Shown here piece by piece: positions 5,971 through 33,563 of a stretch of 33,563 bases of DNA. The notes beneath the pieces were generated by a model. It was not told the origin of the DNA. It worked only from the letters and a program-made list of their open reading frames with translations, and ran no database searches. Within the stretch, counting starts at the first letter, position 1, and each line of letters opens with the position of its first letter. The stretch is from a virus (taxonomy: Duplodnaviria; Heunggongvirae; Uroviricota; Caudoviricetes): the IMG/VR virus record IMGVR_UViG_2690316149_000019. One strand, written 5' to 3'. The position numbers and the translations under genes are program-made.

Positions 5971-6422
5971 TGGCAAAAATTCACGAGGTAAAGCTGCACG
6001 CAAAATATTTCGACCTTGTGCTGGAAGGAAAGAAACGCGCAGAGTTTCGGAAAAATGACCGTAATTATGAGCGCGGGGACACGTTGATTTTGCATGAATG
6101 GGTGCAGGGTGTGTATACGGGGCGAAAGGTTGAAGCCCGGATAACAGATGTTACTGACCTGTCAGACTGGCTGGAAGATTATGTCTTGCTAAGTATTGAG
6201 CTGCTTAATACAGGTGCATATGAGATTGTGAACTGGAAAGAACTTAGTGAGCGTGGTCTGGTATTCAGAATTAATCATGAAATTATGCATCAGCTCGGCC
6301 TTGCTGTTATGTATGAACCAGAGACGGGGATGTCTGGCGGGGCAATGGTTGCCACGGATGGAGCATGGAACTATTCAGATGAACAGATGGAGCGTGCACA
6401 GCAAAACGGGTGGCTTGGATAA
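5970..6422 (+). CDS. Accessory protein with N-terminal ASCH/DUF3850-like (PUA-fold) domain and unknown C-terminal half
   Basis: N-terminus MAKIHEVKLHAKYFDLVLEGKKRAEFRKNDRNYERGDTLILHEW resembles DUF3850/ASCH domains. Start overlaps the A stop (TAATG). Occupies the position where P2 carries orf91/tin/old. Confidence 0.6.
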   Translation: MAKIHEVKLHAKYFDLVLEGKKRAEFRKNDRNYERGDTLILHEWVQGVYTGRKVEARITDVTDLSDWLEDYVLLSIELLNTGAYEIVNWKELSERGLVFRINHEIMHQLGLAVMYEPETGMSGGAMVATDGAWNYSDEQMERAQQNGWLG

Positions 6423-6655
6423 TGCACAGAATGCCAGGCGAGATACCGCACCATAAAACTAAAAATATCAAGCTGATGGCTGTTGTTCACCGTCTACAGC
6501 AGATTATGGTCAACGAAAATCTGACGCCCGATGAGCTGGTCGGGTGTGCCGAAATAGTCCGGGATAATTACAGACGGTTTAACGATATCAGTAGACAGAA
6601 AAGTGAGACATTTCGGCCAGCTAACATGCCAAAACCACCACCACGCAGGCCGTAG
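6422..6655 (+). CDS. Small hypothetical protein
   Basis: 77-aa ORF, start overlapping the upstream stop (TAATG); proline- and basic-rich C-terminus, no recognisable domain. Could be spurious. Confidence 0.35.
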   Translation: MHRMPGEIPHHKTKNIKLMAVVHRLQQIMVNENLTPDELVGCAEIVRDNYRRFNDISRQKSETFRPANMPKPPPRRP

Positions 6656-6888
6656 AGAACCCCGCTATCCATGAAACTTGCTTTCAGGGAGGCGGGTTGA
6701 ATAAAAGTAGCTTTGCCGAAAAGTCTAACTATCTTGGTTTTTGCTGGTCCAAAGTTAATAAACAAACCTGCTTGTATGCAGCGGGTTTCCATATTGCCGT
6801 TTCGTATGCATGCCGCACCGTGCAAAGAGTATGAAAAATGTTATGGAAAAACGGGGATTAGTGTTATATTAATGGCTGAAAAGTGGTC

Positions 6889-6917
6889 TTGACACAGGTT
6901 GTTGTGTGTGGTAAGGC
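6889..6917 (+). promoter_or_regulatory. Candidate sigma70 promoter for the peptidase gene
   Basis: TTGACA at 6889-6894 followed 17 nt later by a weak -10 (TAAGGC); AGGAGG Shine-Dalgarno at 6944-6949 before ATG 6954. Confidence 0.3.
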
Positions 6918-6953
6918 TGTATCCCTTTGGCATTCAAAATGTAGGAGGCAACC

Positions 6954-7430
6954 ATGAGCATCGCAGCTAAAAATCTGCTTAATCGCTATTGGGATCGCCG
7001 ACTACCTGTCGATCCGTTTAAGCTCGCCGCAGCGTGGGGTGCAAGAGTGGAGCCGCTCAGGGAACCAGCGAATGGGTTAAGTGGTTCAGCCGTAATAGAA
7101 AATGGCATACCTTATATTTATTTTAACTCAAATGAACATTACAACCGCCAACGCTTTACTGTAGCGCATGAGCTCGGTCATCATGTTTTAGGGCATACTC
7201 AAGACGGAGAATATCATCGCGATATTGTAGGCAACTACTCAACTGGCATCCGTGATTATCGTGAAATAGAAGCTAACCAGTTTGCTGCAGAGCTATTGAT
7301 GCCGGAAGAGGCCATTCGTCAACTAGTGTCGCGTATAGGCGTTGATAGTACATTACGTTTGGCAAACATATTTAACGTTTCTGAGGCTGCTATGCACTGG
7401 CGTCTTAAAGCGTTGGGTATGGCTTACTAA
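6954..7430 (+). CDS. ImmA/IrrE-family (COG2856-like) zinc metallopeptidase
   Basis: HEXXH motif in FTVAHELGHHVLGH and a downstream glutamate-containing motif (EANQFAAELLMP). 158 aa with a strong AGGAGG ribosome-binding site. Confidence 0.75.
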   Translation: MSIAAKNLLNRYWDRRLPVDPFKLAAAWGARVEPLREPANGLSGSAVIENGIPYIYFNSNEHYNRQRFTVAHELGHHVLGHTQDGEYHRDIVGNYSTGIRDYREIEANQFAAELLMPEEAIRQLVSRIGVDSTLRLANIFNVSEAAMHWRLKALGMAY

Positions 7431-7460
7431 TACCCTCTTTAACTTTTTTCAAACCGGTTT

Positions 7461-7495
7461 AAAATCACCATTATTTTATTAATAATGGTGATTTT
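7461..7495. promoter_or_regulatory. Perfect 15-bp inverted repeat (aaaatcaccattatt / aataatggtgatttt, 5-nt loop) abutting the ATG of the membrane-protein gene
   Basis: Seen in sequence. Preceded by the 10-bp palindrome aaaccggttt (7451-7460) and followed by a T-run; the right arm contains the only Shine-Dalgarno-like element (GGTGA) for ATG 7498. Confidence 0.6.
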
Positions 7496-7497
7496 TT

Positions 7498-8118
7498 ATG
7501 GCAGATATCGACCTCTCTGGCCAATCTCCGGCTCAGTCTTCCCAGCCATCCAAAACTTCAACCTTTCCACATCCACCTAGCGATGCCGATCCAGATATTT
7601 TGTTACGTAGAGAAGTGCATGATGGCATGGAAAGGAGGGGAATGCGCTTAGTTTTGTCAGCCACCGTACTTTTTTTTGCCATAATGTTTTTATGGAAAGG
7701 TCTGTATTTCGCTCTCGAAGTCGGAAATGGTTTGCTTGCGGCTAAAAGTAGTATTGTTTCAGCGTTGGCACAAAATGATGAAAAGGTTGTTTGCGAACCT
7801 AAAACTAAATGTATTGAGCCTAAACAGCAGACAATGAAACCTACAGAAAAAACTCCCGGCATGTCAACAAAGGGTGATAGAGTAATGCCAAACTTATCTA
7901 CAGATTGGCTTTCTGCAAGTTCGCTAATTGCCATAGTCGCTTTCATCCTTGGTGTTGGCTTGACGTTAATCCTTACCCTACTTAAGTCCGCTTTTCATCA
8001 TCCGACTGATAAAAATCTCAATGAGCAAAAAACAACAGATGCGATTGAGTTGGCGACTCCCTTAAGTGAGTTAATCGCGGGTATTATTAATTATCTCAAG
8101 AGCAAATTTTCTAAATAA
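7498..8118 (+). CDS. Membrane protein of unknown function (two predicted transmembrane helices)
   Basis: 206 aa with hydrophobic stretches LVLSATVLFFAIMFLWKGLYFAL and LIAIVAFILGVGLTLILTLL and a Pro/Ser/Thr-rich N-terminus; lower GC than the phage core. Confidence 0.6.
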   Translation: MADIDLSGQSPAQSSQPSKTSTFPHPPSDADPDILLRREVHDGMERRGMRLVLSATVLFFAIMFLWKGLYFALEVGNGLLAAKSSIVSALAQNDEKVVCEPKTKCIEPKQQTMKPTEKTPGMSTKGDRVMPNLSTDWLSASSLIAIVAFILGVGLTLILTLLKSAFHHPTDKNLNEQKTTDAIELATPLSELIAGIINYLKSKFSK

Positions 8119-8327
8119 CGTCCTCTTGGTTATTTTTTAAATCAGCACCATTAGTGCCGGTTTTTTTATGCTGTTTTACTGTAATTTCCCTGTTTTTAAG
8201 CCGTGCATGCAGCAGGTGCATGGTTTTGCATGCGCAGGAAGTGTCCGTTCTGGCCGAGCACCGGCAGAACGGACGCGGATCCAGAACGGTCATGCAACTG
8301 CATTCAAACCACCCCATGAAGCGGGCG

Positions 8328-8346
8328 GGCGAGGCGGGGAAAGCAC
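8328..8346. other. cos: cos site (19-nt cohesive end sequence, P2-type)
   Basis: ggcgaggcggggaaagcac matches the P2 cohesive-end sequence as I recall it. It lies between the accessory locus and Q, where cos sits in P2, and a 10-bp stem-loop (8243-8274) is nearby. Confidence 0.7.
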
Positions 8347-8515
8347 TGCGCGCTGGCGGTGGTGCTGATTTTATTTTTTCAGCGTCTGAGCGCGTCGTGA
8401 TGGCGTTTAGATTGTGCGCCGGGGCGTTGGTGTGTCTGCGGGCTGTTTTGTGCGGTGGTGAGCGTGTGAGGGCGTGATGACGGGGGGTAAAAAAGCCGCC
8501 CGCAGGCGGCGATGT

Positions 8516-11322: not shown

Positions 11323-11495
11323 GAATACCTCGCCGTGATGAATACACGGCAAGGCTACTGAGTCGCGCCCCGCGATTCGCTAAGGTGCTGTTGTGTCAGT
11401 GATAAGCCATCCGGGACTGATGGCGGAGGATGCGCATCGTCGGGAAACTGATGCCGACATGTGACTCCTCTAATCACTATTCAGGACTCCTGACA

Positions 11496-15322: not shown

Positions 15323-15819
15323 TGCCGGTAATTAACACGCATCAGAATATCGCCGCCTTTCTCGACATGCTGGCCGTGTCCGAAGGGACGGCGAATCATC
15401 CGCTGACGAAAAACCGGGGCTATGACGTGATAGTCACCGGACTGGACGGGAAGCCGGAAATTTTCACCGACTACAGTGACCACCCGTTCGCGCATGGCCG
15501 ACCGGCGAAGGTGTTTAACCGTCGCGGTGAAAAATCCACGGCCTCCGGTCGCTATCAGCAGCTTTACCTGTTCTGGCCGCATTACCGCAAACAGCTTGCC
15601 CTGCCGGATTTCAGTCCGTTGTCACAGGACAGACTCGCCATTCAGTTGATCCGCGAACGCGGTGCGCTGGATGACATCCGGGCGGGACGTATTGAGCGCG
15701 CCATTTCACGCTGTCGCAATATCTGGGCGTCCCTGCCGGGAGCCGGTTACGGTCAGCGTGAGCATTCACTGGAAAAACTGGTCACCGTCTGGCGTACCGC
15801 TGGCGGCGTACCGGCTTAA
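15322..15819 (+). CDS. K: Endolysin (lysozyme)
   Basis: 165 aa, P2 gpK length and position immediately after the holin. Confidence 0.88.
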   Translation: MPVINTHQNIAAFLDMLAVSEGTANHPLTKNRGYDVIVTGLDGKPEIFTDYSDHPFAHGRPAKVFNRRGEKSTASGRYQQLYLFWPHYRKQLALPDFSPLSQDRLAIQLIRERGALDDIRAGRIERAISRCRNIWASLPGAGYGQREHSLEKLVTVWRTAGGVPA

Positions 15820-17247: not shown

Positions 17248-17692
17248 GTTTAAGCGTTTTGAAGACCGGCTGACCGGACTGATTGAGTCGCTGTCACCGT
17301 CAGGGCGTCGGCGACTGAGTGCCGAACTGGCGAAACGTCTGCGGCAGAGTCAGCAGCGTCGGGTGATGGCGCAGAAAGCCCCGGACGGCACACCCTACGC
17401 GCCACGTCAGCAGCAGAGCGTCAGAAAAAAGACCGGTCGTGTTAAGCGAAAAATGTTTGCGAAACTTATCACCAGTCGTTTTTTGCATATCCGCGCCAGC
17501 CCGGAGCAGGCATCAATGGAATTTTACGGCGGGAAGTCGCCGAAAATCGCCAGTGTGCATCAGTTCGGTCTGTCGGAAGAAACCCGGAAAGACGGTAAGA
17601 AAATTGATTATCCGGCGCGTCCTCTGCTCGGCTTTACCGGTGAGGATGTGCAGATGATTGAGGAGATTATCCTGGCTCACCTTGAGCGTTAG
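17240..17692 (+). CDS. S: Tail completion protein S
   Basis: 150 aa, P2 gpS length and position. Confidence 0.85.
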   Translation: MNEFKRFEDRLTGLIESLSPSGRRRLSAELAKRLRQSQQRRVMAQKAPDGTPYAPRQQQSVRKKTGRVKRKMFAKLITSRFLHIRASPEQASMEFYGGKSPKIASVHQFGLSEETRKDGKKIDYPARPLLGFTGEDVQMIEEIILAHLER

Positions 17693-17722
17693 TTTTATCC
17701 AGGCAGAGGCTGATGCGCAATT

Positions 17723-17757
17723 AAACATTGAGCGGCCATGCTGGTCGCTCAATGTTT
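17723..17757. terminator. Bidirectional stem-loop between convergent S and the moron gene
   Basis: aaacattgagcg (loop gccatgctggt) cgctcaatgttt: a 12-bp perfect stem. Confidence 0.55.
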
Positions 17758-17763
17758 AGAGGT

Positions 17764-18549
17764 TTATGAGTGATTTTTATTTGATGCTTTGTATTCTAAA
17801 ACCTTCTTATTGGCGTAAAAGAATTTTGTATATGACAGGAATATAACCAGACCTGAAGTGAAATAGACGAGGGATAGTATTAATAATGCTTTTTTGTGAC
17901 TGTTATTATCTTTAATCTCCTGGCTTAACCATTCGGAGTCCTCCTCGTTTAGCTGTAAGAGCTTATTGCAGGCGATTTCAGGAAGTGTGTCTTTTATAAA
18001 TACGTTTTGCAGTCTCTTGCAATCGGCAAGGCTATAAGTTTTATTAAATTCAACTGCTTTATTTTTGAAGGATAAAAGAACTTTGTCACTATAAACATAG
18101 TACATCATATTTTTATATGGTATGCCTATGGCATCTCTTACTATAGCGGATTGTTTGTTGTGTATATAACATGCGAAGAGAATATAAATAATACTGGCCA
18201 GAATTACAATTATTGTTTTAATTATGTGTGGTGGTTTTGTTATGTCACCCCAGATGCGAGTAAGGAAAAAATACGATGTTTTTAGTTTTCCATCAATCAG
18301 TCCCTGCTGTATCATTCTCACATTTTCAATGCCTGATACATTGATTCCGTTAATTATTTTAAATAGTTGAATGTCGCGCCACTCGCGGTCAAGTCTTTTT
18401 AATTTTTTGTCTGAATATCCAAAATTGAAATAATGTGCAATAAGCCTCATAAGGTTACTTTTACCAAAGCTAAAAAATGCTAATACTGCAAAGCTACAAA
18501 GGAAAAAAACGATTAGCCCCCACACATTAGTCACATTATAGCTGACCAT
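17764..18549 (-). CDS. AT-rich moron: membrane protein of unknown function (P2 orf30 position)
   Basis: 261 aa with three hydrophobic helices (N-terminal, central, C-terminal), Lys/Asn/Ile/Tyr-rich. Much lower GC than the flanking tail genes and transcribed against the late operon. Confidence 0.7.
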   Translation of the reverse strand: MVSYNVTNVWGLIVFFLCSFAVLAFFSFGKSNLMRLIAHYFNFGYSDKKLKRLDREWRDIQLFKIINGINVSGIENVRMIQQGLIDGKLKTSYFFLTRIWGDITKPPHIIKTIIVILASIIYILFACYIHNKQSAIVRDAIGIPYKNMMYYVYSDKVLLSFKNKAVEFNKTYSLADCKRLQNVFIKDTLPEIACNKLLQLNEEDSEWLSQEIKDNNSHKKALLILSLVYFTSGLVIFLSYTKFFYANKKVLEYKASNKNHS

Positions 18550-18632: not shown

Positions 18633-19268
18633 ATGAACACTCTCGCAAATATTCAGGAACTCGCGCGCGCACTGCGCAACATGATTCGCACCGGCATTAT
18701 CGTCGAAACCGACCTTAACGCCGGTCGCTGCCGCGTGCAGACCGGCGGCATGTGCACCGACTGGCTTCAGTGGCTGACCCATCGTGCCGGGCGTTCGCGC
18801 ACATGGTGGGCACCTTCCGTGGGGGAACAGGTGCTGATTCTGGCCGTGGGCGGTGAACTCGACACGGCGTTCGTTCTGCCGGGGATTTATTCCGGCGATA
18901 ACCCTGCGCCGTCTGCGTCGGCTGATGCCCTGCATATCCGTTTCCCTGACGGGGCGGTGATTGAGTATGAACCCGAAACCAGTGCACTCACGGTAAGCGG
19001 AATTAAAACGGCCAGCGTGACGGCTTCTGATTCTGTTACTGCCACGGTACCGGTGGTCACGGTGAAAGCGTCAACCCGTGTCACCCTGGACACACCAGAA
19101 GTGGTCTGCACTAACAAACTGACTACCGGCACGCTGGAAGTGCAGAAGGGCGGGACGATGCGCGGCAACATTGAACACACCGGCGGTGAACTCTCATCAA
19201 ACGGTAAGGTACTGCATACCCATAAACACCCCGGCGACAGCGGCGGCACAACCGGGAGTCCTTTATGA
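18633..19268 (+). CDS. V: Baseplate spike protein
   Basis: 211 aa from MNTLANIQELARALRNMIRTG, matching P2 gpV. Confidence 0.88.
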   Translation: MNTLANIQELARALRNMIRTGIIVETDLNAGRCRVQTGGMCTDWLQWLTHRAGRSRTWWAPSVGEQVLILAVGGELDTAFVLPGIYSGDNPAPSASADALHIRFPDGAVIEYEPETSALTVSGIKTASVTASDSVTATVPVVTVKASTRVTLDTPEVVCTNKLTTGTLEVQKGGTMRGNIEHTGGELSSNGKVLHTHKHPGDSGGTTGSPL

Positions 19269-19612
19269 CAGCGCGTTATCTCGGAATGAATCGCAGTGAT
19301 GGCCTGACTGTCACTGACCTTGAGCATATCAGCCAGAGTATCGGCGATATCCTGCGCACACCGGTCGGCTCACGGGTGATGCGTCGTGATTACGGCTCGT
19401 TGCTGGCATCAATGATTGACCAGCCGCAGACCCCGGCGCTTGAGTTGCAGATTAAGGTCGCCTGTTACATGGCGGTGCTGAAATGGGAACCCCGCGTCAC
19501 CCTGTCATCCGTCACCACTGAGCGCAGTTTTGACGGGCGAATGACGGTCACGTTAACCGGCCAGCACAACGACACCGGCCAGCCACTTTCATTAACCATC
19601 CCTGTGAGTTGA
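19265..19612 (+). CDS. W: Baseplate wedge protein W
   Basis: 115 aa, P2 gpW length and position. Confidence 0.88.
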   Translation: MTARYLGMNRSDGLTVTDLEHISQSIGDILRTPVGSRVMRRDYGSLLASMIDQPQTPALELQIKVACYMAVLKWEPRVTLSSVTTERSFDGRMTVTLTGQHNDTGQPLSLTIPVS

Positions 19613-21058: not shown

Positions 21059-23308
21059 ATGAGCACAAAATTCAAAACCGTTATCACCACTGCTGGTGCA
21101 GCAAAGCTGGCAGCGGCAACCGCGCCGGGAGGGCGGAAGGTCAACATTACCACGATGGCCGTCGGGGATGGCGGTGGTAAATTGCCTGTCCCGGATGCCG
21201 GACAGACCGGGCTTATCCACGAAGTCTGGCGACATGCGCTGAACAAAATCAGCCAGGACAAACGAAACAGTAATTATATTATCGCAGAGCTGGTTATTCC
21301 GCCGGAGGTGGGCGGTTTCTGGATGCGTGAGCTTGGCCTGTACGATGATGCTGGAACGTTAATTGCCGTGGCGAACATGGCTGAAAGTTATAAGCCAGCT
21401 CTTGCCGAAGGCTCAGGGCGTTCGCAGACCTGCCGCATGGTCATCATCGTCAGCAGTGTGGCCTCAGTGGCGCTGACCATTGACACCACAACGGTGATGG
21501 CAACGCAGGATTACGTTGATGACAAAATTGCAGAACATGAACAGTCACGACGTCACCCGGACGCCTCGCTGACCGCCAAAGGTTTTACTCAGTTAAGCAG
21601 TGCGACCAACAGCACGTCTGAAACACTCGCCGCAACACCAAAAGCGGTAAAAGCAGCATATGACCTTGCTAACGGGAAATACACTGCACAGGACGCCACC
21701 ACAGCGCGAAAAGGCCTTGTCCAGCTCAGTAGTGCCACCAACAGCACGTCTGAAACGCTCGCCGCAACACCAAAAGCGGTAAAAGCAGCATATGACCTTG
21801 CTAACGGGAAATACACTGCACAGGACGCCACCACCGCGCGAAAAGGCCTTGTCCAGCTCAGTAGCGCCACCAACAGCGATTCTGAAACGCTTGCGGCAAC
21901 GCCAAAGGCGGTTAAGACAGCGTATGACCTTGCTAACGGGAAATACACTGCACAGGATGCCACCACAGCGCGAAAAGGTCTTGTCCAGCTCAGTAGCGCC
22001 ACCAACAGTGATTCTGAAACGCTGGCTGCAACACCAAAAGCGGTGAAGTCTGCCTATGACAATGCTGAAAAACGTCTTCAGAAAGATCAGAACGGTGCGG
22101 ATATTCCTGATAAAGGACGCTTCCTGAGTAACATTAATGTTTACAGCAAAGGTGAAGTGGATAAGAAAAAGGGAATGCGAAAGTATTCGTTTGCAGCCCC
22201 TGCAAATGTCGTTGCCGGGAAGTGGTATCCCGTTATCTTTCGCCGTGCTGCCAGCCTTTCAGGAGAAATGGCATCCCGCGTCGTTATTTCAACTGGTTGT
22301 TATAACGGCGATTATGTAATGAATAACTGCGAGTTTAATGGCATGGTTATGCCCGGAGGCTGGACCGATCGTGGTTCATATGCGGCAGGTTATTTCTGGA
22401 CGTATCAGACTAATGAGCGTTCAATCCATTCCATTGTTACAAGCCTGAAAGATGATGATGTATGTAGTGTTTTTTATGTTGAAGCCAGAGCTTTCCCTGT
22501 GCAAATTCTTGCAGAGGAAGGGCTAACGGTTATTGTTCCGACAGAGGATTATGTCGTCGGTCAAACGACATATAAGTGGGGGGCAACTAATCCCGCTACA
22601 GAAAGCACGAACGCACAGGCTATTCTGGATTTTAAAAATGGACGTGGTTATTACTGTTCACATCCATTTATTTCCAGCCTTTCAGGAAATGCTGCAACAG
22701 CAACGAAGTTAGCGAACGCAAGAAATATTAATGGTGTCAGATTTGATGGCTCTGCCGATATAAATATTAATACACTGGTATCCAGAAACCGTGTTAATGC
22801 ATTAGGTGGGAGCGTAAAGGGGACACCAGGTATTCAGATGTATGAGGCATACAACAATGGCTACCCAACAGCCTATGGTAATGTGCTTCATCTCACTGGC
22901 GTAACCGCAGTAGGAGAGGGTGAGTTACTTATTGGCTGGAGTGGAACCAGCGGTGCTCATGCTCCGGCATATATTCGTTCCCGACGAGATACCACAGATG
23001 CTAACTGGTCTGGATGGGCGCAACTATATACAACTGCTCATAAACCCTCAGCGGGAGATGTTGGTGCATACACCAAAACTGAGTCAGATTCACGTTATGT
23101 GAGAGACATGCGGCTGGGCGGTGCATCTACATATAAACCAGCAAATAATGGTACTACATGGACGCATCAGGCTCCGTCAGGTTGCGTATATACCGGCATT
23201 ATTGTTCAGGATACCGGCTCAAACTCTGCCGATAACATTGGTGGCGTATATTACAGACCGGTGCAGAAATACATTAACGGGACATGGTATAACGTGGCGC
23301 AGGTATAA
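21059..23308 (+). CDS. H: Tail fibre protein H with internal tandem repeats
   Basis: 749 aa with a conserved P2-like N-terminus (MSTKFKTVITTAGAAKLAAATAPGG), then four tandem 44-aa repeats, then a C-terminal domain of about 400 aa. Confidence 0.88.
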   Translation: MSTKFKTVITTAGAAKLAAATAPGGRKVNITTMAVGDGGGKLPVPDAGQTGLIHEVWRHALNKISQDKRNSNYIIAELVIPPEVGGFWMRELGLYDDAGTLIAVANMAESYKPALAEGSGRSQTCRMVIIVSSVASVALTIDTTTVMATQDYVDDKIAEHEQSRRHPDASLTAKGFTQLSSATNSTSETLAATPKAVKAAYDLANGKYTAQDATTARKGLVQLSSATNSTSETLAATPKAVKAAYDLANGKYTAQDATTARKGLVQLSSATNSDSETLAATPKAVKTAYDLANGKYTAQDATTARKGLVQLSSATNSDSETLAATPKAVKSAYDNAEKRLQKDQNGADIPDKGRFLSNINVYSKGEVDKKKGMRKYSFAAPANVVAGKWYPVIFRRAASLSGEMASRVVISTGCYNGDYVMNNCEFNGMVMPGGWTDRGSYAAGYFWTYQTNERSIHSIVTSLKDDDVCSVFYVEARAFPVQILAEEGLTVIVPTEDYVVGQTTYKWGATNPATESTNAQAILDFKNGRGYYCSHPFISSLSGNAATATKLANARNINGVRFDGSADININTLVSRNRVNALGGSVKGTPGIQMYEAYNNGYPTAYGNVLHLTGVTAVGEGELLIGWSGTSGAHAPAYIRSRRDTTDANWSGWAQLYTTAHKPSAGDVGAYTKTESDSRYVRDMRLGGASTYKPANNGTTWTHQAPSGCVYTGIIVQDTGSNSADNIGGVYYRPVQKYINGTWYNVAQV
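21578..22059 (+). repeat. Four tandem in-frame copies of a 132-bp unit inside H
   Basis: The marker accaacagc recurs at 21605, 21737, 21869 and 22001, an exact 132-bp period. Copies differ at a few synonymous and missense positions (NSTSE vs NSDSE). Confidence 0.9.
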
Positions 23309-23311
23309 TTT

Positions 23312-23839
23312 ATGCAGCATTTAAAAAATATTACGGCGGGTAATCCAAAAACGGTTGAACAATATCAATTGACAAAGGACTTTGATGTTGTCTGGTTTTT
23401 TTCAGAAGATGGTAAGAACTGGTACGAAGAACAAAAGTATTTTGCTGATGACACGATAAAAATAGCGTACGACAAAGATAATATCATCCACTATGTGGAA
23501 AAGGATGTGACAGCTATCAGACCGGATGGATTAAGTGTTGTTGAAGTGGCGGATATTACTGCTAACCGACGGGCGGACATTTCAGGGAACTGGATGTTTA
23601 AGGACGGCAAAGTGATTAAACGCATTTATACGGCAGAGGAATTACAGCAGCAGGCAGAAATTCGGAAAGCCAGACTTCTTGCAGATGCTGAATCCGTGAT
23701 TTTGCCGCTGGAGCGCGCGGTCAGACTGAACATGGCAACAGATGAGGAGCGTAGCCGACTGGAATCATGGGAACGCTACAGCGTTCTGATCAGTCGTGTG
23801 GATCCTGCAAATCCTGAATGGCCGGAAATGCCGCAATAA
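23312..23839 (+). CDS. G: Tail fibre assembly chaperone
   Basis: 175 aa immediately downstream of H. Confidence 0.85.
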
Positions 23840-24178
23840 GTTGTATGAACTCTTGTGTGAGCTTACATACCTATAGAACAGAGTAAAGCCTAATCTGACA
23901 GTCCGCTCTGTGCCAGGAGCGGACATAACGACACGTTAGTTAGAAATCTCAAGACCAATTAGGTTGGATACTTACATGTATACTATTGCCTAACGATACT
24001 ACCCTATCAACCTCATGGTTTATAGGCGGGGGTGAGAGCCAATCGAACGCTATCGTACGTTTTTATGCTGTCTACCCTAGACCCCAAGTAGACATGAATC
24101 TTACCTGATTTCCATACGAGGGCGACGTTGATCATCCAGCTTTAGTGCGAGCACTGAACTTAACATTTACCAGCAATA

Positions 24179-25225
24179 GTGATATTTTCTACAAAGAAAA
24201 ATATATGGAATAACGTCATCGCGGGTACAAAAATGACTATAAAAAAAACATATGTAACACCAACAGAAATAGTGAAATATTTTTATGACAAACCGGAAAA
24301 CGATAACGTAAAAGAGAGAAAAACAATTGAGAGCCTGACCCGTCTCAAACCTGAGTGGGAAAATACTCTCGATATGATGAAGTTAATACGCAATTGTGAA
24401 AAGCTAGCAACTGAAGGTATTTTAATGGAATTATCTTCAGGACATACTCTTTTGGACCGTTGCTATTTCGCACCGAATTTCAATGAATCAGATGCGAAAT
24501 ATGGAAAGTATGATTTTATAGCTGATGGATTTGAGTCAATCATAGACCGCCTTAGTCCTTCCGTTTTACCTGTTGTTGTTGAAAAAAGTGATGGTTCACA
24601 TGATCTTGGTACTAGTTTTATTGTTGGGAATAACCACACGATATTTACAGCCAGACATGTTATTGAAGACATGAAGAGTATCAGGATACTTAGAGCTGGT
24701 GGTGAGGCTTTACCAATACATAAAATCTTTGTATCTAACGATGAACGTATTGATATCGCTTTAGTTTTCACAACCATTCCGAATGAAGATAATATTCAAC
24801 CACTTAAGGTCTCAACCAAAGCCTCGGTACTGGATGAAATTTTATCAATAGGATTTCCACCCATTCCAGGATTTGATGCATTAAAGTTATATGACGTTTC
24901 GCATATAAATTCGTTTGTCCGACTGTCAAAGGGGCGAATTGTTGGTTCTGGTCACTCTTACTTAGATTCACAAGACTTTTTATTATTCAATGCTAGGGTT
25001 AAGGGGGGGAATAGCGGTGGCCCTATAATTAACAAATACGGCTTTGTTGTTGGTATGCTTGTACAAATACCAATATCATCTGAGGACAGTTCAAAGATTG
25101 ATAACCTTGGATATGGTATAGCTGTAACAGGAAAAAGCCTGCTGGATGCCATTACATTTACAGAAAATGGCCGCGAATTAACACTCACCGACCGAGGAAA
25201 TGGAGAATATTCAACTCTAGCATAA
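24179..25225 (+). CDS. AT-rich moron: trypsin-like (S1/chymotrypsin-fold) serine protease with an unknown N-terminal domain of about 140 aa
   Basis: Catalytic triad context in order: TARHVIED (His), ERIDIALVF (Asp), GGNSGGPII (GxSGG Ser). The annotated start is a GTG; an in-frame ATG at 24233 is an alternative. Occupies the P2 Z/fun position between G and FI. Confidence 0.75.
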   Translation: MIFSTKKNIWNNVIAGTKMTIKKTYVTPTEIVKYFYDKPENDNVKERKTIESLTRLKPEWENTLDMMKLIRNCEKLATEGILMELSSGHTLLDRCYFAPNFNESDAKYGKYDFIADGFESIIDRLSPSVLPVVVEKSDGSHDLGTSFIVGNNHTIFTARHVIEDMKSIRILRAGGEALPIHKIFVSNDERIDIALVFTTIPNEDNIQPLKVSTKASVLDEILSIGFPPIPGFDALKLYDVSHINSFVRLSKGRIVGSGHSYLDSQDFLLFNARVKGGNSGGPIINKYGFVVGMLVQIPISSEDSSKIDNLGYGIAVTGKSLLDAITFTENGRELTLTDRGNGEYSTLA

Positions 25226-25700
25226 ATGATATTATTAATTAAGTTGTACTAACTCAGTTTAAATGAATCAAGCATCCCCGTAACTTTGCCTGAAAAGGCT
25301 CATCGAGGGATGCACATTGTACGGATGTGTGAAAACTAAATCGGCTTTGTCACTTGGATTCGAGGGGAAAACTGAACTGAAAGCGATAAAAACGTCTAAA
25401 AAATCGTTTCGCAGACAGATGCACCCGATTCAAGCCATTTTGAGGAAGGCTTTCTGCCTTTTATATTTATATTAATCATAAGCTTATTCCATTGGTGTAC
25501 GATATCGTGCTTTGCCCCTCATCTCCCAGATAACTAATTAGCCTTAAAATTACTCATGTGTTTCTGCCGGTTAAAATTATATGGTTTTCATTTACAATAG
25601 TCTCAAGTCCGCTCTTCGCTCAAAGCAGACTGTCAGATTTGATAGCATTTGGGCTATGTAAATTGTCAGGCGGAAAATGAGTGAGTACAAATCAGGACAG

Positions 25701-25725
25701 GCGGGCGAATTGCCCGCATTTTCTT
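25701..25725 (+). terminator. Rho-independent terminator upstream of the FI late promoter
   Basis: gcgggcgaattgcccgc palindromic hairpin followed by a T-rich run (attttcttt). Confidence 0.55.
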
Positions 25726-25822
25726 TATCTGTTGTTTCATCCCCTGACCAGCCAGGTCAAATAGCGTCTCATGCTCTGCACAACAGAAAATAGTTGCACC
25801 CATTAACCACGGAGTTAAACGG

Positions 25823-27013
25823 ATGAGTGACTATCATCACGGTGTGCAGGTGCTGGAGATTAACGACGGCACCCGCGTCATTTCCACCGTATCCACGGCC
25901 ATTGTCGGCATGGTCTGCACGGCCAGCGATGCGGATGCGGAAACCTTCCCCCTCAATAAACCGGTGCTGATTACCAATGTGCAGAGCGCAATTGCAAAGG
26001 CCGGTAAAAAAGGCACGCTGGCGGCATCGTTGCAGGCCATCGCCGACCAGTCAAAACCGGTCACCGTTGTCGTGCGTGTGGAAGACGGCACCGGCGACGA
26101 CGAGGAAACGAAACTCGCGCAGACCGTTTCCAATATCATCGGCACCACTGACGAAAACGGTCAGTACACCGGACTGAAAGCCCTGCTGGCGGCGGAGTCG
26201 GTAACCGGTGTTAAACCGCGTATTCTTGGTGTGCCGGGGCTGGATACCAAAGAGGTGGCTGTTGCACTGGCATCAGTCTGTCAGAAGCTGCGCGCTTTCG
26301 GATATATCAGCGCATGGGGCTGTAAAACCATTTCCGAGGTGAAAGCCTACCGCCAGAATTTCAGCCAGCGTGAGCTGATGGTCATCTGGCCGGATTTCCT
26401 CGCATGGGATACGGTCACCAGTACCACCGCCACCGCGTATGCCACCGCCCGTGCGCTGGGTCTGCGTGCCAAAATCGACCAGGAGCAGGGCTGGCATAAA
26501 ACGCTGTCCAACGTCGGGGTAAACGGTGTTACCGGCATCAGCGCATCTGTATTCTGGGATTTGCAGGAGTCCGGCACCGATGCTGACCTGCTTAACGAGT
26601 CAGGCGTCACTACGCTGATTCGCCGCGACGGTTTCCGATTCTGGGGTAACCGTACCTGCTCTGATGACCCGCTGTTCCTCTTTGAAAACTACACCCGCAC
26701 CGCGCAGGTGCTGGCCGACACGATGGCTGAGGCGCACATGTGGGCGGTGGACAAGCCCATCACTGCAACGCTGATTCGCGACATTGTTGACGGCATCAAT
26801 GCCAAATTCCGTGAGCTGAAAACAAACGGCTATATCGTGGATGCGACCTGCTGGTTCAGCGAAGAATCCAACGATGCGGAAACCCTCAAGGCCGGAAAAC
26901 TGTATATCGACTACGACTATACACCGGTGCCTCCTCTTGAAAACCTGACCCTGCGCCAGCGTATTACCGATAAATACCTGGCAAATCTGGTCACCTCGGT
27001 TAACAGCAATTAA
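25823..27013 (+). CDS. FI: Tail sheath protein
   Basis: 396 aa, P2 gpFI length and position. Confidence 0.9.
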   Translation: MSDYHHGVQVLEINDGTRVISTVSTAIVGMVCTASDADAETFPLNKPVLITNVQSAIAKAGKKGTLAASLQAIADQSKPVTVVVRVEDGTGDDEETKLAQTVSNIIGTTDENGQYTGLKALLAAESVTGVKPRILGVPGLDTKEVAVALASVCQKLRAFGYISAWGCKTISEVKAYRQNFSQRELMVIWPDFLAWDTVTSTTATAYATARALGLRAKIDQEQGWHKTLSNVGVNGVTGISASVFWDLQESGTDADLLNESGVTTLIRRDGFRFWGNRTCSDDPLFLFENYTRTAQVLADTMAEAHMWAVDKPITATLIRDIVDGINAKFRELKTNGYIVDATCWFSEESNDAETLKAGKLYIDYDYTPVPPLENLTLRQRITDKYLANLVTSVNSN

Positions 27014-32660: not shown

Positions 32661-33563
32661 ATGAATCAATCTTATGGACGGCTGGTCAGTCGGGCGGCGA
32701 TTGCTGCGACGGCGATGGCTTCGTTGCTATTGCTGATTAAAATTTTTGCATGGTGGTATACCGGGTCGGTGAGTATTCTCGCCGCGCTGGTGGATTCGCT
32801 GGTGGATATCGGCGCGTCGTTGACGAATTTATTGGTGGTGCGATATTCCCTGCAACCTGCCGACGATAATCACTCGTTTGGTCACGGTAAAGCTGAGTCC
32901 CTCGCGGCGCTGGCGCAAAGTATGTTTATCTCCGGTTCGGCACTATTCCTGTTTTTGACGGGTATTCAACATCTGATATCTCCAACACCGATGACAGATC
33001 CAGGCGTCGGGGTTATCGTGACAATTGTGGCGCTAATTTGTACGATTATCCTTGTCTCGTTTCAGCGTTGGGTGGTGCGGCGGACGCAAAGCCAGGCGGT
33101 GCGGGCTGATATGCTACATTACCAGTCTGATGTTATGATGAACGGCGCAATTCTGCTGGCGCTGGGGTTGTCCTGGTACGGCTGGCATCGCGCCGATGCT
33201 CTGTTTGCATTGGGAATCGGCATCTATATTTTATATAGCGCGTTACGCATGGGATATGAGGCGGTACAGTCATTACTGGATCGCGCATTGCCTGATGAGG
33301 AACGGCAAGAAATTATTGATATCGTGACTTCCTGGCCGGGTGTTAGCGGCGCTCACGATCTTCGCACGCGGCAGTCAGGGCCGACCCGCTTTATTCAGAT
33401 TCATTTGGAAATGGAAGACTCTCTGCCTTTGGTTCAGGCACATATGGTGGCGGATCAGGTAGAGCAGGCTATTTTACGGCGTTTTCCGGGATCGGATGTA
33501 ATTATCCATCAGGACCCCTGTTCCGTCGTACCCAGGGAGGGTAAACGGTCTATGCTTTCATAA
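32661..33563 (+). CDS. fieF: Cation diffusion facilitator FieF (ferrous-iron/zinc efflux), host gene
   Basis: 300 aa from [54 protein letters not shown], recognised as enterobacterial FieF/YiiP. The stop codon is the last triplet of the window. Confidence 0.9.

Follow-up and report, generated by a model that had tools for sequence, protein, structure and literature searches.

Boundary units at the ends of exchangeable cargo cassettes in the G-FI slot of P2-like prophages

Introduction

How defence and accessory genes are swapped so rapidly at hotspots of phages and genomic islands, above all between elements without shared flanking homology, is an acknowledged unknown, and a 2026 study in NAR that covered thousands of P2 and P4 elements concluded of the recombination processes that they "still need to be elucidated". 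The Z/fun locus of P2 is known to harbour anti-phage and other accessory genes; published work delimits this hotspot by its flanking core genes, calls the swapping mechanism unknown and gives no boundary motif (PMC9122126; 10.1101/2024.10.15.618418; PMC13586616). The window analysed here, the whole stretch of 33,563 nt, is a P2-like prophage that carries an S1 peptidase cassette at this same locus, its G-FI (Z/fun) hotspot. A preliminary description of the window had noted short repeated and inverted motifs at both ends of the insert and proposed that recombination at a conserved junction sequence had served to exchange the cargo.

An inverted repeat encloses the cassette

The features of the slot and its surroundings, with positions in the window, are as follows.

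23312..23839, + strand: gene G, coding for the tail fibre assembly protein and forming the left backbone side of the slot (Pfam Caudo_TAP, E = 1.8e-33; the annotation of an identical RefSeq record agrees)
23840..23891, + strand: left spacer, 52 nt, conserved in all occupied P2 slots and missing at empty G-FI sites
23892..23900, + strand: outer extension of the left arm, AATCTGACA, part of the inverted repeat and mirroring TGTCAGATT on the right
23901..23924, - strand: A-type boundary unit, GTCCGCTCC-TGGCAC-AGAGCGGAC on the minus strand
23925..25606, + strand: cargo cassette, 1,682 nt, 35-40% GC, which moves as one block
24160..24188, + strand: promoter-like site TTAACA-17-TATTTT, with TG (consensus scan only, putative function)
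24233..25225, + strand: gene for an S1/trypsin-like serine peptidase of 330 aa (Pfam Trypsin_2, 1.7e-17; RefSeq "S1 family peptidase")
25444..25472, + strand: hairpin and T-run resembling a terminator, past the end of the peptidase gene and inside the cassette (consensus scan, putative function)
25607..25630, + strand: B-type boundary unit, GTCCGCTCT-TCGCTC-AAAGCAGAC
25631..25639, + strand: outer extension of the right arm, TGTCAGATT, part of the inverted repeat and conserved in P2 slots
25640..25700, + strand: right spacer, conserved in occupied P2 slots and missing at empty sites
25701..25727, + strand: Rho-independent terminator, GCGGGCGAATTGCCCGC plus T-run (terminator scan)
25823..27013, + strand: gene FI, tail sheath, the right backbone gene of the slot (Pfam Phage_sheath_1, 9.8e-34)

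The slot corresponds to the G-FI/Z-fun hotspot of P2-like phages (Peduovirus), which is defined by a variable, non-essential insert between G and FI, and its cargo combines a low GC content (35-40% in the enclosed DNA vs 50-60% in the flanking phage genes in a GC profile) with its own expression signals, the latter being consensus matches only. The spacers were judged by aligning 12 slots against two empty sites, L014 and L015, in which the terminator of 25701..25727 stands directly after the stop codon of G. Full-length copies of the cassette (query positions 1-1682), at 99.6% identity or more, were present in 41 genomes of E. coli and occupied no fewer than three different contexts. Its 330-aa peptidase matches phrog_18002 ("unknown function") over the full length, and its PADLOC matches were restricted to the protease domain of other systems.

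All of the motifs reported for the two junctions were recovered: AATCTGACAGTCCGCTC at 23892-23908 on the left, with hairpin arms GTCCGCTC at 23901-23908 and GAGCGGAC at 23917-23924, and on the right the direct copy AGTCCGCTC at 25606-25614 and the inverted copy GACTGTCAGATT at 25628-25639. They are better described as a single 33-nt imperfect inverted repeat around the low-GC cassette, formed by 23892-23924 and 25607-25639, in which 28 of 33 positions are complementary (85%); a repeat search found it to be the longest inverted repeat of the region, with its arms 1,682 nt apart. The preliminary description had allowed that such motifs might recur by chance, and on this point the exact 12-mer held up, occurring in the 33.5-kb window at the two junctions only, whereas the 9-mer alone was not significant (6 matches with at most 1 mismatch vs 5.7 expected). 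A weight matrix made from independent copies found elsewhere gave scores of 35.4 for the left unit and 32.1 for the right unit, compared with at most 13.8 for the best match in 20 shuffled windows, and the scan with this matrix found no further units in the window beyond the two junction sites. Folding predicted a stable hairpin for the left unit (-9.2 kcal/mol, z = -3.4) and no fold for the right unit (z about 0).

Two unit subtypes with a fixed geometry

Each arm of the repeat contains a 24-nt unit, GTCCGCTYY-(6 nt)-AAAGCRGAC, laid out as inverted heptamers GTCCGCT and AGCRGAC with a centre of 6-7 nt between them. The units fall into two subtypes, type A with the centre TGGCAC and type B with the centre TCGCTC. 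Both units of the window, A as well as B, have their 5' (GTCCGCT) end toward the cargo, and the same orientation prevails among distant unit pairs, whose 5' ends face inward in 10 of 12 cases (p = 4e-5); all 10 inward-facing pairs are composed of one A and one B unit (p = 1e-3). Adjacent cassettes are joined through a B-18 nt-A composite, which is present in L016, L084, L090 and L332, that is, in unrelated genera and contexts.

The proposal that exchange had left duplicated and rearranged copies of a junction sequence is not supported. The motifs instead represent two distinct conserved subtypes that occur in many backbones in a fixed inward, heterotypic geometry, and they are not the debris of one event. 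The hairpin described at the left junction is predicted for the A unit, but it is not the conserved feature: at free stem positions pairing is retained in 21-64% of unit copies, and the B unit of the window does not fold. Conservation of sequence rather than of base pairing suggests that the units may be recognised by a protein that reads the duplex.

Cargo boundaries coincide with the units across P2-like phages

When related prophages with different cargo were compared, as had been proposed, the cargo boundaries matched the motifs in 11 named P2-like phages and in 72 viral contigs, with 39 cargo types. In a profile of the 39 non-redundant cargo types from the 72 P2-like contigs, consensus frequency was 70-90% across the backbone, outer arm and centre and fell to 30-40% where each 24-nt core meets the cargo. 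When different cargo types were aligned with one another, the internal end points of the alignments, which are not mutually independent, lay within 12 nt of a unit in 462 of 614 cases, compared with 4.2% of positions so placed. In 51 of the 72 contigs the B unit preceded the start codon of FI by a constant 215-217 nt, and in P2 itself fun(Z) is bracketed by an A unit at 15335-15358 and a B unit at 17432-17455. Many units are decayed and yet still lie at cargo boundaries, and the outer arm of the P2 B unit is degenerate. An empty slot that retained its units was found in 1 of 1,005 genomes, a number that is uninformative on the origin of the slot.

The core of the earlier proposal, exchange of cargo by recombination at a conserved junction sequence, was thus borne out, since cargo boundaries coincide with the motifs and identical cassettes in unrelated elements stop inside them (see below); the interpretation as a whole is partly supported. 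In bioinformatic work the units could also serve to delimit cargo cassettes and to find new defence genes.

Units and cassettes are shared with other mobile elements

The units are also found at the ends of cargo slots in lambdoid prophages and in islands of the CP4-type and tRNA-linked kinds. The A unit of the window together with its flanks (37 nt) is 100% identical to copies in CP4-type islands, in which an identical A arm of 35-37 nt marks the boundary between conserved and variable DNA beside six different cargos and a B unit stands at the far end. Likewise, the left outer extension AATCTGACA is found at the CP4-island slots L001, L002 and L016-L019, while the right outer extension is TGTCAGATT in P2 slots and NTTCAGCTC in other backbones. 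The slot of L016 is an array in the order A, cassette, B-18 nt-A, cassette, B, and in a lambdoid slot whose flanks are identical the cargo measures 1,442 nt in one version and 2,465 nt in the other, the cargo-side arm differing with the cargo.

Three cassettes were 98.8-99.4% identical between P2 and other elements, and in all three the similarity stops inside the units. The S1 peptidase cassette of P2 matched those of L021 and L023 at 99.2-99.4% identity; the two-gene cassette X was shared between the P2 contig L170 and L021 at 98.8%, from B unit to B unit; and a NUDIX+HAD cassette was shared between P2-like P24C9 and the lambdoid L323 at 99.3%, exactly from unit to unit, with unrelated flanks. 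As read from these alignments, the cargo-side arm evidently goes with the cassette and the outer arm remains with the backbone. At six B joints, three cargo-side arms are found in combination with three outer arms, and in every one the switch falls within TCGCTCA; on the A side, the S1 peptidase cassette has two different joints inside P2 (window vs L022). Because the parental switch falls inside the units, the exchange points lie in the units themselves and not just nearby. Cassettes occur only in slots already bearing units, L021 corresponds to L023 with one module inserted at the B unit, and no direct duplication was found outside the arms at the window junctions or in the slot alignment. 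The units thus tie exchange to a defined sequence of 24 nt at the exact points where it occurs and obey a rule of geometry, and three moved cassettes connect P2-like phages, lambdoid phages and islands, all of which makes the question open to experiment.

Distribution of the units

Related units are widespread in Proteobacteria, including Alpha- and Betaproteobacteria, and those of other Proteobacteria adjoin ordinary genes, typically about 55 nt past the stop codon; the 5' side of the unit was toward the 3' end of the gene in 43 of 66 cases (median 55 nt). In E. coli the units are concentrated in mobile-element cargo slots, with a median of 1 place and a maximum of 7 per genome. Several units per contig were seen in Alphaproteobacteria, in which the copy number appears higher than in E. 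coli, as an impression rather than a count. That all copies outside P2 represent P2 or CP4 contexts was rejected for the copies in other Enterobacterales. The neighbours of the units that recurred across 80 genomic and 109 viral loci were ordinary metabolic or phage backbone genes, and no recombinase, HUH or RAYT gene was among them. K-12 contains decayed unit remnants only. The P4 reference genome lacks a unit, which suggests an explanation for the reported lack of exchange between P2 and P4.

A search of the window and 10 loci gave no Rfam family at the units with either gathering or E-value thresholds, and no annotation names the unit in K-12 CP4-57 or in the curated P2 record. Full-text literature searches with unit sequence strings returned nothing relevant; Nilsson et al. 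2004 and Odegrip et al. 2006 may treat the Z/fun borders. Neither Rfam nor curated annotation nor the searchable literature thus contains a description of the units, although the older Z/fun work may limit their novelty. A suspicion that Rac trkG is the 484-aa cargo carried by L274, a lambdoid contig, and that units flank trkG in K-12, was not borne out.

Possible mechanisms of exchange

We propose that the A and B units are portable boundary repeats and that cassettes are replaced or inserted by recombination within them, most likely by a homology-type mechanism, a proposal to which we give an even chance. The A and B copies mark off a slot between G and FI of P2-like phages into which cargo can be plugged, and self-contained cassettes (promoter, gene or genes, and terminator) would be swapped or added through recombination inside the units, which would serve as portable short homologies comparable to dispersed palindromes of the REP/BIME type. 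As to enzymology, we infer that host RecA or phage single-strand-annealing recombinases act on the units of co-resident mobile elements, replacing cassettes by a double crossover or inserting them by an unequal one, and that repeated conversion keeps the units alike. Consistent with this mechanism, no recombinase or other gene is a recurrent companion of the units, the same S1 cassette has two different A-side joints in P2, and the units elsewhere in Proteobacteria adjoin ordinary genes, as in REP-like dispersal. Less easily reconciled with homology is the short identity between partners, 24-37 nt with mismatches and often 7 identical bases at the crossover, given that RecA-type recombination normally requires longer identity. 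Nor would homology alone lead one to expect that six B joints all fall in one 7-nt centre, that sequence and not pairing is conserved, or that the copy number in E. coli is so low, unlike that of classical REPs; and the arm-centre-arm anatomy, with two centre types in heterotypic pairs, has the look of a conservative site-specific system with heterospecific sites.

Such a dedicated system would use A and B as heterospecific core sites, on which a trans-acting recombinase encoded at an unlinked place, probably a tyrosine recombinase, would act; we regard this possibility as doubtful. Its sites would have inverted arms of about 9-12 bp and a crossover region of 6-7 bp, and cassettes would either be exchanged through two reciprocal crossovers, one between A sites and one between B sites, or enter as circles carrying a B-18 nt-A junction. 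The arm-centre-arm units with centres TGGCAC/TCGCTC, the A+B composition of all ten inward-facing distant pairs, the conservation of sequence rather than pairing and the location of all six B joints inside TCGCTCA, despite differing arms on both sides, agree with it, and the relationship of L021 to L023 and contig L170 resemble single-crossover insertion of a circular module. Moreover, the alternation of cassette and 18-nt linker parallels that of C and D dif modules (PMC13141974), and the commonest A centre, GTGCCAA, is the crossover core of the Rci sfx sites (PMC4176322). On the other hand, none of the 80 genomic and 109 viral loci has a unit-linked recombinase gene, the arms are unlike dif/XerCD arms and the sfx right arm, and the centre is the longest identical stretch, so that homology-driven events would map there too. 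The two A-side joints of the S1 cassette in P2, the degenerate outer arm of the P2 B unit and the many decayed units that still mark boundaries also speak against it. Tentatively, and at a similarly low probability, A and B could be the heterospecific core sites of an unrecognised trans-acting system, equivalent in nature to recombinase-mediated cassette exchange, that moves defence and accessory cassettes among P2-like phages, lambdoid phages and islands of Enterobacteria and has relatives across Proteobacteria; if a dedicated enzyme exists, it would offer a new natural cassette-exchange tool. Mobility through single strands or hairpins, by HUH/RAYT-type enzymes on REPIN-like doublets or by replication template switching at palindromes, with B-18 nt-A as the reactive entity, could account for the recurrence of this composite in unrelated genera and contexts (L084, L090, L016 and L332), which is REP-doublet-like, for the position of units just past genes and for the hairpin of the A unit. 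We consider it very unlikely given the poor retention of stem pairing, the unfolded B unit of the window, neighbours without an HUH or RAYT gene, the absence of target-site duplications and outer arms that co-vary with the backbone and not the cassette. Slightly less probable still is a function in expression, as terminators, insulators, mRNA 3' stabilisers or operator sites, in which case the units would simply go along with self-contained accessory genes and have no role in recombination. Accessory genes of this sort are classically bounded by promoters and terminators, and both the facing of gene 3' ends by the 5' side of units and the stable A hairpin would suit such elements, but neither unit is followed by a T-run, real terminators are elsewhere (25444 and 25701), the B unit is unfolded, and the parental switch falls inside the units with re-assortment of the arms. 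Identity of the units with Rho-independent terminators was rejected on the same lack of a T-run and of a fold in the B unit, neither unit being detected in the terminator scan, and terminal inverted repeats of a transposon or MITE were rejected because the outer arms and extensions follow the backbone and direct duplications are absent outside the arms.

Comparison with known systems

Integron cassettes resemble those described here in forming arrays of promoter-independent or self-contained cassettes with imperfectly palindromic sites (attC) 3' of genes, and the insertion of a single module is consistent with a circular intermediate. In contrast, the identical record has no intI in its gene map of the window, no integrase family is recurrent near the units, the unit consensus lacks the GTTRRRY/RYYYAAC core boxes of attC, and the cassettes lie between inverted, not direct, sites with genes in either orientation. 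REP, BIME and REPIN sequences are likewise short intergenic imperfect palindromes 3' of genes in many Proteobacteria, and here, too, subtypes are paired in alternating orientation over a fixed linker. REPs are, moreover, documented join-points of recombination. The units differ from them in being low-copy in E. coli, in lacking the GTAG tetranucleotide and a RAYT link, and in the weak conservation of pairing.

The dif (pdif) modules of Acinetobacter plasmids, on whose XerC arm, 6-bp spacer and XerD arm XerC/XerD act, are similar in that gene modules lie between inversely oriented arm-spacer-arm sites (PMC13141974). Common to both are alternating module types, represented here by cassettes alternating with the 18-nt linker or backbone, as well as half-sites that re-assort at the spacer and identical modules in different backbones. 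The arms found here, GTCCGCTYY/AAAGCRGAC, by inspection bear no resemblance to XerC/XerD arms. The E. coli dif site is GGTGCGCATAA-TGTATA-TTATGTTAAAT. The hosts also differ, being phages and islands of Enterobacteria, each cassette has two centre types, and a homology mechanism is at least as likely for the units.

PeSL cassettes of T4-type phages, in which stem-loop repeats flank non-essential genes in hyperplastic regions and recombination between PeSLs leads to gene insertion, deletion or replacement, possibly with release of mini-circles (PMC2839356), share with the units the arrangement of short conserved stem-loop-bearing repeats around replaceable non-essential genes. However, PeSLs are promoter-plus-terminator units of one phage lineage that undergo homologous recombination across longer repeats, whereas the units described here are 24 nt long, without promoter or T-run, and occur as two subtypes with fixed geometry in unrelated element families. 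Finally, the sfx sites of the Rci shufflon consist of a 7-bp core, GTGCCAA, and a conserved right arm, TCCGGTACGTGG, with rci adjacent (PMC4176322); the window has no rci-like gene and the right arm is unmatched, while the core equals the commonest A centre.

A 33-nt inverted repeat encloses the insert between G and FI

The junction strings of the preliminary description were all present in the window where it had placed them, and its observation of motifs at both insert boundaries was confirmed by a repeat search that recovered both motifs as parts of a 33-nt inverted repeat, the longest of the region, with 1,682 nt between its arms. The enclosed DNA has a GC content of 35-40%, compared with 50-60% in the flanking genes, and the window overall is a P2-like prophage running from gene A through ogr.

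Features of the G-to-FI region of the window
23312-23839: P2 gene G, tail fiber assembly, left flank
23892-23924 versus 25607-25639: inverted repeat, 33 nt, 85% complementary
24160-24188: promoter-like site within the insert
24233-25225: sole gene of the insert, S1/trypsin-like peptidase, 330 aa (Pfam Trypsin_2)
25444-25462: terminator-like hairpin within the insert
25701-25717: terminator closing the G operon
25823-27013: gene FI, tail sheath, right flank

The S1 peptidase showed a full-length match to a PHROG family of unknown function, and its matches in PADLOC were confined to the protease domains of other systems. Across the 33.5-kb window the exact 12-mer occurs at both junctions only; the 9-mer by itself has no significance, judging from its counts in the window. 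A weight matrix built from independent copies outside the window scored the two junction sites at 35.4 and 32.1, compared with at most 13.8 for the best of 20 shuffled windows, and its scan of the window revealed no further unit besides these two sites.

Two conserved types of boundary unit

We call the 24-nt core of each arm a unit, of type A (center TGGCAC) or type B (center TCGCTC), read from the cargo outward, and its GTCCGCT end the 5′ end.

Unit cores
Type A, left core, minus strand: GTCCGCTCC-TGGCAC-AGAGCGGAC
Type B, right core: GTCCGCTCT-TCGCTC-AAAGCAGAC
Phage P2, 15335-15358: A unit, on one side of fun(Z)
Phage P2, 17432-17455: B unit, on the other side of fun(Z)

In P2, TGTCAGATT lies on the outer side of both cores, and the curated P2 record carries no annotation of either unit around fun(Z). 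Comparison of 186 distinct copies from genomes and viral contigs (106 A and 66 B among them) revealed that the heptamers GTCCGCT and AGCRGAC and the centers are nearly invariant. Because the other stem positions are able to pair in just 21-64% of copies, and because in the window only the A unit forms a stable fold, the conserved feature of the units is their sequence and not a hairpin. The cargo-side flank (T)TAGCAAT is common to both types across all 186 copies, and a semi-conserved RTTGCTAACATCA directly adjoins the A unit at the start of many unrelated cargos (e.g. loci L003-L013, L016 and L019, and viral contigs), suggesting that the functional site may extend ~8-13 nt beyond the core on the cargo side.

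The units also showed a fixed arrangement. Among 12 pairs more than 100 nt apart on one locus, ten had their 5′ ends toward the enclosed segment and none faced outward (p = 4e-5), and all ten inward-facing pairs consisted of one A and one B unit (p = 1e-3). The sole close outward-facing pair was a B-18 nt-A composite, which is also found in Phytobacter and Klebsiella chromosomes.

Units coincide with cargo boundaries in P2-like phages

Across P2-like phages with different cargo, cargo boundaries coincided with the junction motifs (11 named phages; 72 contigs with 39 cargo types). The left arm lies ~52 nt past the G stop codon in all 11 named phages, which carry unrelated cargo, and the inverted right arm is found in most of them. 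At the empty sites of two prophages, the G stop codon is followed directly by the terminator, without either arm or either conserved spacer. When the left arm was used to scan viral contigs, 94 matched, and 72 of these span G to FI with 39 distinct cargo types. The search pattern placed no constraint on the right junction, so that this part of the test is unbiased, and in 51 of the 72 a B unit precedes the FI start codon by 215-217 nt. Among the 39 non-redundant cargo types, consensus frequency was 70-90% through backbone, outer arm and center and then, precisely where each core meets the cargo, dropped to a background of 30-40%; cargo-side arms vary between cargos. Internal alignment end points between different cargo types fell within 12 nt of a unit in 462 of 614 cases, compared with 4.2% of positions, the end points being non-independent in that the same boundary was often counted repeatedly.

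Among 1,005 E. coli genomes, the closest case to an empty slot keeping its units is a single genome (NZ_AP022549.1, 1664943-1665558) that, alone among them, has the halves of the P2 slot within ~600 nt of each other (~440 nt of cargo). Two extra 1.2-1.3 kb segments (1296-2596 and 4638-5791) distinguish locus L174 from L193, their P2 hotspot arrays being otherwise identical. The ends of these segments do not coincide with units, indicating that some hotspot changes take other routes, possibly including IS insertions.

Cassettes change backbone within the units

The window's 1,682-nt cassette (the S1 cassette) was found end to end in 41 E. coli genomes with at least 99.6% identity, only 13 of which also have the window's G and FI flanks. 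It is also present in L021, a degraded element, in a row with other cassettes, and in L023, a prophage remnant, beside a tRNA 3′ end and an integrase fragment. Apart from a single additional module, X, inserted at the B unit, L021 equals L023, and X follows a different cassette in the P2-like contig L170 (98.8% identity, B unit to B unit). Alignment of six B units from these loci revealed the cargo-side arms GTCCGCTCT, GTCCGTTCC and GTCCGCAGA in combination with three outer arms, AAGCAGAC of P2, TAACAGAC/G of the tRNA-side backbone and TAGCTGAC of the left end of X, with all switches inside the 7-nt center TCGCTCA. Similarly, a NUDIX+HAD cassette is 99.3% identical over 1,491 nt between the P2-like phage P24C9 and the lambdoid contig L323, the aligned stretch beginning precisely where the A core begins and ending precisely where the B core ends, with unrelated flanks and backbone-specific outer arms. 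The second cassette of L204 is the single cassette of L150 and starts at an internal A unit. The A side is less tidy, the S1 cassette occurring in two P2 prophages with two different unit variants.

A-side variants of the S1 cassette
Window: GTCCGCTCC-TGGCACA-GAGCGGAC
L022: GTCCGCTTT-TGGCACA-TAGCGGAC

In sum, the units delimit cargo cassettes in several unrelated backbones. Where a cassette has passed from one backbone to another, the point of exchange falls within the unit, its cargo-side arm moving with the cassette and its outer arm remaining with the backbone. The proposal that cargo was exchanged by recombination at a conserved junction thus stands in substance; what had been taken for duplicated and rearranged copies are instead two conserved subtypes in a fixed geometry.

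A further palindromic repeat, unrelated to the units (arms ~CCGCAGACACGT ... ACGTGTTGCGG), appears repeatedly between cassettes of the L021 (2343-2378, 4808-4913) and L023 (1116-1154, 2139-2242, ~4805-4910) arrays. It separates the G remnant from DUF2971, and DUF4236 from the S1 peptidase cassette, and may be another class of cassette boundary element.

Units outside P2 prophages

Within E. coli, the left arm was found at 4,382 places in 2,613 of 5,426 genomes (median one per genome). Chromosomal sites beyond P2 prophages (H76-H80) carry a 35-37-nt left arm with 100% identity in CP4-type integrative islands, ~150 nt upstream of a GTPase-Ag43 (or dynamin) module. There the arm sits exactly at the change from conserved sequence to variable cargo, six loci having six different cargos, and the far end of the cargo has a B unit followed by island-specific sequence. 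With the weight matrix, the L016 island was resolved into an array of A, DUF2971, B, 18 nt, A, GNAT plus two genes, and B. In the K-12 island CP4-57, a decayed A-like unit, TTCGCCCTTTTGGCATGA, stands directly after rnlB and before the GTPase gene yfjP, and GCACTATG is repeated in tandem ~six times (~11400-11450) in the cargo region between abpA and yfjM.

A generic pattern scan of viral contigs identified 109 further loci, 86 of which lacked G/FI context. The outer-side neighbors of these included the lambdoid replication and early genes O, P, DUF977, DUF968, YdaT and HTH regulators, and some units adjoin other tail fiber modules. One lambdoid slot with identical flanks holds a cargo of either 1,442 nt or 2,465 nt, and the cargo-side arm changes along with the cargo.

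When one genome per species was scanned with a degenerate pattern, at least 80 loci were listed, from many Enterobacterales as well as Alpha-, Beta- and other Gammaproteobacteria. The pattern's free positions were strongly non-random, giving the consensus GTCCGCTT(T/C)TGGC(A/C)CA(A/T)AGC(G/A)GAC flanked by AAT and AT; the units therefore form a real family rather than chance matches. Their neighbors are ordinary genes, and no enterobacterial locus among the matches listed belongs to a P2 or CP4 setting. In 43 of 66 cases, the gene next to the unit's 5′ side has its 3′ end toward the unit (median distance 55 nt; p = 0.009). Contigs of Pseudolabrys and other Alphaproteobacteria (L030, L035, L040, L050, L052, L076, L083 and others) each hold several copies of the unit. 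A conserved ...CTAGTGCACCG comes after the unit, and TGCGGTGCA sometimes stands before it, which produces a larger nested palindrome. The element resembles an intergenic repeat of high copy number and often lies next to ABC_sub_bind (PF04392) genes.

Possible mechanisms of exchange

How the DNA is cut and joined is a matter of inference, and two readings fit the data. In one, for which we judge the case evenly balanced, the units would be portable short homologies resembling dispersed REP-type palindromes, cassettes would be replaced or inserted through host or phage general recombination, and the likeness among units would be kept by repeated conversion. No recombinase recurred among the neighbors of units at genomic and viral loci, and this lack of a linked enzyme favors exchange by homology, as do the variable A-side joints, the REP-like siting of units among other Proteobacteria and the finding that decayed units continue to mark cargo boundaries. 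Identity at the joint is very short, often 7 nt, which disfavors it. Alternatively, the arm-center-arm layout, the strict inward geometry of A and B, the six B joints within one 7-nt center and the insertion of module X, which resembles that of a circle, point to a dedicated system of conservative site-specific recombination that would use two heterospecific sites and closely parallel dif modules. With no candidate enzyme, and with a center that is also the longest identical stretch, we regard such a system as possible but rather doubtful. Single-strand or hairpin-dependent processes, or a purely expression-related role, are improbable even when taken jointly.

Several known elements were ruled out: terminators (no T-run accompanies the units, and the B unit shows no fold), transposon ends (the outer arms go with the backbone, and target duplications are lacking), integrons (no intI, no attC core boxes), Xer sites (by arm sequence) and sfx sites (by the arm, although their Rci crossover core GTGCCAA equals the commonest A center; PMC4176322). 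No Rfam family matched the units.

Relation to earlier work

The G-FI (Z/fun) hotspot and its defense cargo are already known (PMC9122126; 10.1101/2024.10.15.618418; PMC13586616), and these studies mention no boundary repeats, hairpins or motifs. A 2026 NAR study of P2/P4 elements stated that flanking homology is lacking when swapping involves unrelated elements, concluded that the recombination processes remain to be elucidated, and found defenses almost never exchanged between P2 and P4. The one P4 genome scanned (NC_001609) contains no A or B unit scoring 12 or more with the weight matrix, which, for this single genome, fits the near-absence of P2-P4 exchange and could help explain it. The nearest precedents in principle are dif modules (PMC13141974) and the PeSL cassettes of T4-type phages (PMC2839356). 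A full-text literature search with the unit sequence returned nothing relevant. No prior description of the units was found in the searchable literature, the scope of which does not include Nilsson et al. 2004, whose title ties site-specific recombination to P2 variable loci. Within that literature, a boundary-unit system that joins the P2 hotspot with lambdoid phages and islands seems not to have been described, and the units make an open question on hotspot swapping testable.

Other features of the prophage

The tin/old hotspot of the window, from replication gene A to the portal gene (~5970-8480), contains DUF3850, an ImmA/IrrE metallopeptidase and several hypothetical genes. The search for A and B units gave none in this region, and this hotspot must therefore have other boundaries. 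A 785-nt gene on the minus strand (17764-18549), between virion morphogenesis gene S and baseplate gene V, where P2 has orf30, is another accessory insert of the prophage and has no flanking A or B unit. Directly after ogr lies an IS66-family element (~32690-33563; tnpA, tnpB, ISEc22 transposase) where P2 has attP and int, so that the prophage end appears interrupted. Finally, tail fiber gene H (21059-23308) is an intact 749-aa ORF in the window; the identical RefSeq record annotates it as two partial fragments of a pseudogene (record 17375-18343 and 19154-19366), a difference that probably reflects a mosaic C-terminal part.
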